NCBI GenBank assembly: GCA_048939245.1
Contig: JBHLPR010000074.1
Span: forward strand, 1 to 10,475
Length of the DNA: 10,475 nt
Reading direction: 5' to 3'
Origin: Promethearchaeota archaeon
GTDB lineage: Archaea; Asgardarchaeota; Hermodarchaeia; Hermodarchaeales; Hermodarchaeaceae
The notes beneath the pieces are model-generated. The model searched no databases, was not told the origin of the DNA, and worked only from the letters and a program-made list of their open reading frames with translations. Positions 7,864 through 10,175 of this stretch are shown here, piece after piece (position 1 is the first letter of the stretch; the number at the start of each line of letters is the position of its first letter). A program made the position numbers and the translations under genes.

Positions 7864-7970
7864 TGGTGGACCGGCCGGGATTTGAACCCGGGGCCTCCGC
7901 CATGCCTTCGTCACCGGTACAACAGCATTATACCGATAAAGACGGCGATCTACCGCTGATCTACCGGCCC
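7864..7970 (-). tRNA. tRNA-Ala(GGC) with a 32-nt intron (7907-7938) at position 33/34
   Basis: Acceptor stem GGGCCGG/CCGGTCC with the G3:U70 alanine determinant, plus ACCA. The CGTC/GACG helix has TT^T and AA^G bulges and the intron stem is ATCGGTA/TACCGGT. The spliced arm reads CCGTC-TTGGCAT-GGCGG. Confidence 0.94.
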
Positions 7971-8032
7971 ATTTGATTTCGATTTCTTTTGCAATTTGAG
8001 GTTATAAGAATTTTGGCAATTAATATTTCGGT

Positions 8033-10096
8033 TCAACTTAATAGGAGTTCTTTTCGAACTTTAGCAACTTCCTCTTGTCTTTCTGCTAACCAGATTTCTA
8101 CCTTTCTCTTTTTTCGTGAGACATTTATTGGGGCGAATAATGCCCACTTGATGGTATCAACTTTAGACTTGGTTTTCGCCACCCATTTTAGAGAAATCCT
8201 TTTTGTCTTTTCATATAGTGAGATATTTTCTGGGTATACAAGTATCTTAATACCCAGTTCTTCAGCCAAGGTAACTTCATCATCAAGTAGTTTACTTCTA
8301 CTTGTTTCTATTTTACCTATAATTTTCTGAGCGATTTCTGAATCAACTTCGTTCTTGATTTTTGAAATTGGCAAAATGATATGTTTTCTCCTTTCATCAA
8401 CTCTCGTAGCTTCGTGGTTTAAAATGAATTTTTCTTCATCTCCTGAGAGTTTTGGTTGTATATGGTATTTTGTATCTTGTATTCCAGGATTCAGTACAAC
8501 AGTTCGGCTCCATTTAAACCCAGCAAGAGGTTCAAATGATCCATCTTCGGCAATCAATTCCTCAAGATATGCGATTTTAGATTCAATAGATCCATTCCTG
8601 ATAGGTCCTACTAATCGTTCGTTTTGGATTGATTTATCCCCAGTAGTAAACCCCCAGAAGATGAATGCGTTACCTATTGGTTTAGGTATCCACATTTTGA
8701 AACTACTGTCACTCTTGTTCGATACCAACTTAAAGTCAATATCTCCAAAATGCCGAAATAGCGTCTGAACAATTTTTATTCTGTCAATATCAGCTTCGGT
8801 GTATTGTAATCGACCATCTTCAGCAAGCCAAGAATCGCTGTTTACAACTGCACCAAGCCTAGTAAGTAATATTTCCAATTCTACTCCATGTAGAAGCTTT
8901 GGACGCAAGATCCCACCATGCCCATTTTTTCCTGCGACCTTTTCGATCATATGCTCAAAATTCCGGGGTGAGACCCCCAAAATATCACACTGAAGACGGA
9001 AAACTTCTCCTACCAATCGTGTTGAATCAGATCTATAATTAACTCGACCAATTTGATTCGACGCTTCCCCTGATATCAATTGTACAACAAGGTTCTTGAA
9101 ATGTACAAATTTCTCATAGTCGCTACCAGCGAAATCTAATTTTGCCCCTACCATGAGTATTATTCGTGCGAAATCACATCTATTGAAATAGAGCTGCTGA
9201 TTTAACCAAGCATTGAGCATATCGATAGGGTTTAGATCGGGAGCCCAAAGATACAACCTTCTTTCTGAAATACAGATGTGCAAGCTATTCTCCGCTAGAT
9301 TAGTTTGTGCTTTTAGATCTCTCAGGATTTTTTCGCGATTCTTCTTAAGAAATTCTGTGAATAAATGTAGTGTCGAAGTATCTAGAGTTTCAAAGGTTGT
9401 ATAGCCAATCCTTGTTTTCCTCTCATACAACTTGTTGAGCATTTTTTGTAGAAGAGAAACAACATTATCTAGCGAGAAACCGATGTCACACCCAAAATGA
9501 CTATCTTCTAGCCTTATTACTTCGGTGAAATCTTGAGGGTAAGATTGTTGATTTGAGTCTCGATTATTTTCTACCTCGATTAACTCTTTTCGACACCACT
9601 CTTCGATTAGATACTGTTCCTCCAGTTTTCGAAGTCGAGAAATGAGCGAAGGTTCCTTACCAGCCAGATATTCGCTGACTCTTTGTTGAGAGATACAATG
9701 AATCTCAACTAATTCTTTCTGTGAATGCGATATGTCATCTCTTACTTCGAAATAGACCTTAGAATCTATGTGCCGTTTAATGAAGTGATTGTTCTCCTTT
9801 TCTGCTAGATATTTTTCGAGAAGACGAAGGACATCATTCAGGGATTTAATTCGAACCGTTGGAGGTCCACCATGCACTTCCCTATAAAGACGCGCAAGCT
9901 CTTTCTGCTCTAATTTCTTTACTAGGCTAGGCTGTCCCCTATCCGTTTGTCTATCAAAATATCTTAACGCTGCTTCATACTGGTTTTGGAAACTCTTTAG
10001 TATTCTAAGTTCTGGATATTGTTCCAGTAGGGCTTCGAAACTTTGTCGACTTTTAATAATCGAAGGATGATATCGAGGCATACACACATATGTCAT
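8033..10096 (-). CDS. 687-aa protein with an N-terminal HTH and a C-terminal two-motif LAGLIDADG (DOD-type) homing endonuclease domain
   Basis: Motif 1 LGAVVNSDS (aa ~414-422) and motif 2 AYLEELIAEDG (aa ~509-519), both with Asp at LAGLIDADG position 8. Between them lie QYTEADIDRIKIVQTLFRHFG and GFTTGDKS; later SKLLDDEVTLAEELGI resembles DOD block H. HTH-like segment SQKELVEIHCISQQRVSEYLAG. Recognised by eye only. Confidence 0.7.
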   Translation of the reverse strand: MTYVCMPRYHPSIIKSRQSFEALLEQYPELRILKSFQNQYEAALRYFDRQTDRGQPSLVKKLEQKELARLYREVHGGPPTVRIKSLNDVLRLLEKYLAEKENNHFIKRHIDSKVYFEVRDDISHSQKELVEIHCISQQRVSEYLAGKEPSLISRLRKLEEQYLIEEWCRKELIEVENNRDSNQQSYPQDFTEVIRLEDSHFGCDIGFSLDNVVSLLQKMLNKLYERKTRIGYTTFETLDTSTLHLFTEFLKKNREKILRDLKAQTNLAENSLHICISERRLYLWAPDLNPIDMLNAWLNQQLYFNRCDFARIILMVGAKLDFAGSDYEKFVHFKNLVVQLISGEASNQIGRVNYRSDSTRLVGEVFRLQCDILGVSPRNFEHMIEKVAGKNGHGGILRPKLLHGVELEILLTRLGAVVNSDSWLAEDGRLQYTEADIDRIKIVQTLFRHFGDIDFKLVSNKSDSSFKMWIPKPIGNAFIFWGFTTGDKSIQNERLVGPIRNGSIESKIAYLEELIAEDGSFEPLAGFKWSRTVVLNPGIQDTKYHIQPKLSGDEEKFILNHEATRVDERRKHIILPISKIKNEVDSEIAQKIIGKIETSRSKLLDDEVTLAEELGIKILVYPENISLYEKTKRISLKWVAKTKSKVDTIKWALFAPINVSRKKRKVEIWLAERQEEVAKVRKELLLS

Positions 10097-10130
10097 TATA
10101 GTACTAAGCTGATAAATTCATATAGATCAG

Positions 10131-10161
10131 AGACGGCGATCTACCGCTGATTTTCCGGCCC
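10131..10161 (-). pseudogene. Degenerate 5' half of tRNA-Ala (tRNA positions 1-32)
   Basis: GGGCCGGAAAATCAGCGGTAGATCGCCGTCT differs from the intact gene by U8>A and G10>A. Similarity stops in the anticodon loop. It lies 11 nt downstream of the rpl37e stop. Confidence 0.85.
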
Positions 10162-10175
10162 ATAAAAGGGGATTA
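10154..10175. repeat. 22-bp imperfect direct repeat, right copy (pairs with 5996-6017)
   Basis: On the minus strand it begins with the rpl37e TAA stop and overlaps the first 8 nt of the tRNA-Ala remnant. Confidence 0.7.

Follow-up and report, generated by a model that had tools for sequence, protein, structure and literature searches.

A LAGLIDADG endonuclease gene inserted in an archaeal tRNA-Ala gene: a probable free-standing homing element that replaces the front end of its target

In the stretch of Asgard archaeal DNA analysed here (10,475 nucleotides, referred to as the window), a tRNA-Ala(GGC) gene is interrupted by an insert of 2,191 bp bracketed by a direct repeat (31/33). We consider the insert to be most likely a free-standing homing-type element, predicted to cut the anticodon arm of the tRNA gene and to replace the tRNA front end. 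A preliminary description of the window had already put forward a free-standing homing element in tRNA-Ala; the protein fold, the empty allele, the imported promoter and the horizontal spread all support it, but the window copy proves to be a reduced form with an atypical layout.

Organization of the insertion

The features of the locus are as follows:

7864-7970, minus strand: whole tRNA-Ala(GGC) gene downstream of the ORF, intron-bearing
7864..7906, minus strand: 3' exon of tRNA-Ala(GGC), CCA encoded
7907..7938, minus strand: BHB intron of 32 nt at 33/34, 91-97% identical over five species
7939..7970, minus strand: replacement 5' exon of tRNA-Ala(GGC), positions 1-33 (right repeat, 7940-7972)
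8001..8016, minus strand: BRE/TATA-like promoter brought with the insert, 30 nt before tRNA +1
8033..10096, minus strand: 687-aa ORF with a helix-turn-helix part, a part of unknown type and a two-motif LAGLIDADG endonuclease part
8036..8893, minus strand: LAGLIDADG domain, aa 402-687
8543-8545 and 8834-8836, minus strand: motif acids D518 and D421, within the LAGLIDADG domain
9638..9784, minus strand: probable helix-turn-helix, aa ~105-153 (a weak assignment: such domains fill the match list, with Z ~4)
10131..10163, minus strand: left repeat; 5' half of the host tRNA-Ala left stranded (-2 to 32), substituted at two positions, 8 and 10
10173..10358, minus strand: host gene rpl37e (PF01907, E 7.6e-25)

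The two repeat copies are 33 bp long with a spacing of 2,191, and cover tRNA positions 1-32 (standard numbering) together with the two bases before them; the chance expectation for a 31/33 repeat is ~1e-8. The ORF is on the same strand as the tRNA, and gene callers put its start at Met6 (682 aa). GC content is 0.37 in the insert and 0.48 in the remainder of the window, and the decayed tRNA copy begins 11 nt past the rpl37e stop. The repeat, the same-strand ORF, the lower GC content and the 11-nt spacing given in the preliminary description were reproduced, as was the absence of a recombinase gene from the 2.19-kb insert. An assembly artefact is ruled out, since the same repeat junctions recur in two other, independent Logan assemblies (L037 and L038) and in strains of further runs. 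A giant intron or split tRNA was likewise rejected, because each lineage shows its own pattern of decay in the left copy, and the right copy is a complete gene with a promoter of its own.

Two other features of the window, both on the plus strand, concern tRNA genes. An intron-containing tRNA lies right after tRNA-Val at 7148-7259 and is probably Phe(GAA) with one or more D-loop introns; ARAGORN wrongly calls it Arg, and there is a weak Rfam match at 7196-7248. At 6218-6295, a tRNA-like inverted match to tRNA-Gly is probably a second tRNA missed by both ARAGORN and Rfam.

The encoded protein

In the AlphaFold (AF2) model of the 687-aa protein (pLDDT 83.5), aa 402-687 are predicted to form a two-motif, single-chain LAGLIDADG domain with both catalytic acids. 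The best 49 Foldseek matches are all LAGLIDADG nucleases, and VIA superpositions of this domain on such nucleases give Z scores of 11-13.9 with rmsd values of 2.5-2.7 over 170-190 residues (TliVMA, Z 13.9; PI-PfuI, Z 13.0, rmsd 2.7 over 187; I-Tsp061I, Z 12.1; I-DmoI, Z 11.1). The predicted acids, D421 and D518, which were assigned by motif register rather than by residue-level superposition, occupy motif position 8 and are D or D/E in 53 of 53 family rows. The fold proposed earlier for the C-terminal part, that of the I-DmoI, PI-PfuI and PI-SceI class, is thus recovered with AlphaFold and Foldseek, and with its acids intact.

Pfam and NCBIfam searches returned no family for the 687-aa protein, and the ESM Atlas gave only LAGLIDADG leads below 0.9. 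The N-terminal part is predicted to be helical; its 400 residues have no fold match over Z 4.4, an absence that in itself proves nothing. The gene is neither an intein, there being no Hint match in Pfam and the structural matches spanning only the nuclease part of inteins, nor a BHB-intron-encoded endonuclease, as the ORF lies outside the 32-nt intron. Compared with a 79%-identical copy, dN/dS is 0.28 overall and 0.20 in the nuclease domain, which indicates that the protein is under purifying selection. Gene decay also occurs: near strains have a 4-nt insertion at codon 373, and one run also a 207-nt deletion. Such broken copies fit a homing life cycle.

The rescued tRNA and its promoter

The gene downstream of the ORF is identified as Ala(GGC) by its G3:U70 pair, and Ala TGC and CGC genes are located elsewhere. 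It is a complete copy, as previously described, but the word "intact" overlooked the intron at 33/34, which sits one base beyond the repeat. The intron boundaries were set by an intronless allele in a related genome (G014); ARAGORN run without introns fails to detect this tRNA.

The TATA-like motif reported inside the insert is indeed present at 8001-8016. It occurs once in the host genome (G000), and the exact motif is found in only 3 of the 19 family genomes, each time before tRNA-Ala; in Thorarchaeota, the same motif is the usual promoter before tRNA-Ala(GGC). The idea that the insert supplied a new promoter and 5' half stands accordingly, the motif being foreign to the host and the native end being stranded as the decayed copy. 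Two genomes lack the ORF and retain either the 5' scar and promoter (G016) or the promoter alone (G018), which are probably remnants. A tRNA-Ala(GGC) with a D-loop intron is found in G015 (L017:1807-1910), and the G016 scar ends at the same position.

The intron state of the tRNA flips five times among 13 genomes, dividing three sister pairs, and the closest empty relatives already have the same 33/34 intron. At equal host divergence the 33/34 intron is 95% identical across species, versus 69% for the 37/38 intron. A recent sweep of a cut-blocking allele would explain this identity, by analogy with collaborative homing in phages, and blocking is a candidate role for the intron. Immunity by the intron alone was rejected as a general rule, since four loci (L026, L032, L024 and L025) are intronless. 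All 12 clade-adjacent tRNAs differ from the unbroken consensus, as do about four in five unlinked Ala(GGC) genes; two adjoining tRNAs are intronless and have D-stem changes only. No unbroken target site was found in G000.

Empty sites and horizontal transfer

The host, tentatively a member of Hermodarchaeia, belongs to an Asgard family of 19 species (f1) that is separate from the Thorarchaeota family (f6) and has no same-class neighbours in the genome set used. The empty allele, predicted earlier as rpl37e followed directly by tRNA-Ala, was found in 13 related genomes, where the tRNA begins 10-11 nt after the rpl37e stop with no insert (the gap was counted in 12). No empty-allele joint was found in the contigs searched from four runs holding near strains.

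A second copy (L035) has the same layout as the window, with insert DNA that is 85.7% identical (pS 0.29). Its rpl37e tail is 97% like that of G006 and 66% like that of G000, two genomes whose genes differ by pS 0.75-0.82. Since the insert divergence is far below that of the host genes, and the site in G006 is empty, the comparison indicates that the element moved between host species into the same site, the L035 host being judged from 71 nt of flank. The left scars each retain the spacer of their own host together with mutations of their own, and the L035 scar has decayed at other positions.

Relatives, phylogeny and target sites

Of 400 genomes of the phylum, 65 have homologs, almost all of them in f1 and f6; clustered at 50% identity, the family numbers ~300 clusters. 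In the tree, the window protein falls inside a clade of 18 rows, mostly from Thorarchaeota (100/98), away from the paralogs of its own genome, and grouping the f1 sequences together is rejected (p-AU 2.5e-6, for a group chosen after the tree was seen). We infer that the lineage of the window element came from Thorarchaeota. Taken together, the sequence comparisons point to movement between species and classes without an integrase.

A piece of tRNA-Ala(GGC) or tRNA-Thr(GGT), which have a common anticodon-arm sequence, lies <500 nt from the gene at 16 of the 18 clade loci and within 3 kb at the other two, compared with 1 of 19 more distant loci (1.5-kb flanks were surveyed, and related loci are not independent). 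Four of five further close homologs also abut tRNA pieces: two Thr scars, one Ala gene and one probable Leu end, the fifth contig ending 87 nt past the stop. Basal relatives (L078, L214) converge on other tRNAs, one with three 3' scars and one a probable tRNA-Leu. The expected association of homologs with tRNA genes therefore holds family-wide, stranded halves included, but most have a layout different from that of the window. In the usual configuration, the gene and the tRNA 3' end converge tail-to-tail, 0-10 nt separating the stop codon from the CCA. Relative to rpl37e, the converging unit is found either way round, and cargo often accompanies it. In the genus of the window itself, one locus (L036) has a scar, the gene and then an inverted tRNA end.

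Individual loci show further variations. At L026:7269-7430, an older copy has left an inverted remnant, made up of the tRNA 3' tip and the final 45 nuclease codons. At L032:3550-4250, a CRISPR array separates the rescued tRNA-Ala from the 5' half that was left stranded, and at L034:3686-5359 the cargo is an OLD-family ATPase-TOPRIM gene, with tRNA-Ala on one side and an inverted 3' scar on the other. At five loci (L141, L142, L149, L156 and L158), the Thorarchaeota tRNA-Ala(GGC) site is an integron-like stack in which cargo genes are bounded by promoter-plus-5' scars and 3' scars of either orientation, in many cases with no copy of the nuclease gene close by.

The clear 5' scars end at positions 27-33 (about a dozen) or 20-25 (about eight), and none extends beyond 33 except one decayed near-whole copy. 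Among the 3' scars, the first retained position varies from about 26-29 up to 65. Because 5' scars stop by 33 and 3' scars begin no earlier than ~26-29, the ends suggest that the break falls near 29-33 and is trimmed to a variable extent. Single-chain LAGLIDADG endonucleases characteristically make site-specific double-strand cuts that leave 4-nt 3' overhangs. Some 14 of the 3' scars have their start in the T-arm (48-56), which is the classic integrase crossover zone; these scars may be integrase att sites, and other elements may share the hot spot.

Sister clades appear, from their flanking sequences, to repeat the pattern at NiFe-hydrogenase gene ends (DPCxxC motifs). A paralog in the host genome (L161, G000:C74:24295-26511) converges on a group-4-type hydrogenase large-subunit gene, and its relatives (L192, L193, L194 and L179) have cargo arrays split by hydrogenase 3'-end scars from the DPCFSC codons on. 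Another paralog (L202) is flanked by two copies of a group-3 NiFe-hydrogenase large-subunit 3' end, from DPCLSC on (273-323 and 2467-2517); L201 is a further case of a paralog between two such ends. A different paralog (L160, G000:C32:578-2545) lies right after the glmS stop and replaces the intergenic promoter region, at a site that is empty in 12 relatives and has no duplication.

At 17 loci across all three clades, a HerA-like ATPase of 830-1010 aa is encoded directly upstream of the gene, its stop overlapping the start, which suggests that the ATPase-nuclease pairing is old. The ATPase scores under the cut-off of every named family. Its conserved operon consists of ORFs of ~105, 210 and 272 aa followed by the ATPase (L216:1441-6017, L218:1172-5679, L021:896-3379 and L197:327-3359). 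The window copy has no such ATPase. Since many relatives are longer and lie behind this operon, the window copy would be a stripped form. The preliminary description was right that the element is integrase-free; "minimal", in contrast, would mean reduced from a larger HerA-ATPase module and not from an integrase island. Larger relatives, which it had considered as possible integrase carriers, do exist, but no integrase was found on the ten clade contigs searched.

Alternative explanations

The insert might instead be cargo in an integrase hot spot, with tRNA-Ala(GGC) as attB, the integrase acting in trans or lost, and the insert a deletion remnant. The Thorarchaeota locus, an array of cargo and tRNA ends of which many have no LAGLIDADG gene, speaks for it, as do the many 3' scars that start in the T-arm; tyrosine recombinases are encoded elsewhere in the hosts, and a similar tRNA-Thr insert was taken as recombinase-driven (PMC3293823). 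Against this, no tyrosine recombinase (PF00589) is found on ten host contigs and no serine recombinase (PF00239) on five, the LAGLIDADG gene itself occupies the tRNA-adjacent slot, and different clades follow different targets (Ala, Thr, Leu, hydrogenases and glmS). Both orientations are found, and the 5' scar ends are spread from 20 to 33 rather than at a single fixed crossover. We therefore regard this explanation as unlikely.

The operon raises another alternative: a larger HerA-ATPase module, serving DNA transfer or defence, in which the protein would be the targeting or mobilising subunit. The window copy would then be an orphan that either depends on this module or has lost it. The overlapping ATPase genes of the three clades argue for this, but ATPase-less copies are intact, selected and spread between species, and G000 has distant ATPase homologs only. 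We think it quite improbable as the main explanation, and it is compatible with a homing element. The least probable reading, to which we give very little credence, is a domesticated, non-cutting, WhiA-like DNA-binding protein that regulates the adjacent tRNA. WhiA does score level with the nucleases (VIA Z 12.2), and the N-terminal part is HTH-like. Unlike WhiA, however, which has lost the catalytic acids and is stably inherited by vertical descent, the family retains both acids throughout, and the gene is patchy, horizontally spread, often broken and missing from most hosts.

Discussion

For the homing-type element that we favour, a simple cycle can be proposed. The protein would cut the anticodon-arm DNA of tRNA-Ala(GGC) near positions 29-33, and the break would be repaired from donor DNA through homology in rpl37e and the tRNA 5' part on one side and the tRNA 3' part on the other. 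Only outcomes that rebuild a tRNA would survive, with the old front end remaining as a scar. The donor would be spared as its site is split, the scar having no 3' half and the rescued gene carrying the intron at 33/34. The presumed ancestor lay tail-to-tail on the tRNA in Thorarchaeota, often behind the HerA-like ATPase operon; the window copy would have lost the operon and kept spreading. Repeated cutting with imprecise repair would account for the way in which tRNA scars and cargo genes are stacked at the locus.

By analogy, the element most likely works like the mORFs of fungal mitochondria, which are known from atp6 of Allomyces macrogynus and from atp6, atp9, cox2 and nad3 of Glomus (PMC3630166), and an archaeal architectural precedent exists at tRNA-Thr (PMC3293823). 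Like the mORFs, it is an endonuclease gene outside any intron or intein, located in an essential gene, which carries a replacement end, leaves the native end duplicated and is transferred horizontally (PMC3630166). It differs from them in its archaeal chromosome and tRNA target, in replacing the 5' end and promoter, in encoding a 687-aa multidomain protein, and in having relatives with cargo arrays and a HerA partner. The precedent is an insertion in tRNA-Thr(GGU) of Caldiarchaeum subterraneum, whose 813-bp ORF was termed a probable recombinase (Sugahara 2012, PMC3293823). Here too, a stranded 5' tRNA fragment, a ~1.9-kb one-ORF insert and a replacement 5' part with an intron are described (PMC3293823); the ORF was not identified as LAGLIDADG, and the likeness is one of architecture, taken from that description.

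Other systems share parts of this arrangement. SegB of phages T4/T6 is a free-standing homing nuclease beside tRNA genes that cuts a tRNA region and causes segmental duplications, and collaborative homing, a partnership of nuclease and intron, offers a model for the 33/34 intron (PMC2988022, PMC13096335); SegB, however, is a phage-borne GIY-YIG enzyme and neither splits a tRNA nor rebuilds one. I-DmoI, I-Tsp061I, PI-PfuI, TliVMA and PI-SceI have the same single-chain LAGLIDADG fold and two motif acids but are intron- or intein-encoded, whereas the window ORF has no intein domain, lies outside the BHB intron and has ~400 extra N-terminal residues. The Asgard element HeimM2 of Heimdallarchaeum has a homing-endonuclease homolog proposed for site-specific integration beside a tRNA; it lies between 16S and tRNA-Arg, a duplicated tRNA half is not described, and the nuclease family is not stated (PMC8813620). 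Our literature search turned up no paper on LAGLIDADG genes that lie at tRNA genes in archaea or that belong to Thorarchaeota, and none on the family of the window protein.

A wider reading, which we offer tentatively and consider somewhat doubtful, is that this Asgard HTH-LAGLIDADG family is an integrase substitute. Clade-specific cuts at conserved gene ends (tRNA anticodon arms and the NiFe-hydrogenase DPCxxC) would be followed by repair that swaps ends and traps foreign genes into integron-like arrays, the HerA-like ATPase module would aid DNA travel, and cutting would drive resistant 33/34 intron alleles between species. A 2026 census left the arrival route of Asgard tRNA introns open (bioRxiv 10.64898/2026.10.13.758758). 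The present locus offers a concrete arrival route and, if the integrase-substitute reading is true, this would be the route of intron gain that the census could not find. A homing element at this locus would also mean that the mORF type of homing, which is known from mitochondria of fungi, operates on an archaeal chromosome, where a tRNA gene is the target and the position of the cut can be predicted. The family is a source of ~300 unannotated meganuclease-like proteins with inferable targets, and its activity may explain how gene arrays have arisen at tRNA and hydrogenase loci without an integrase.
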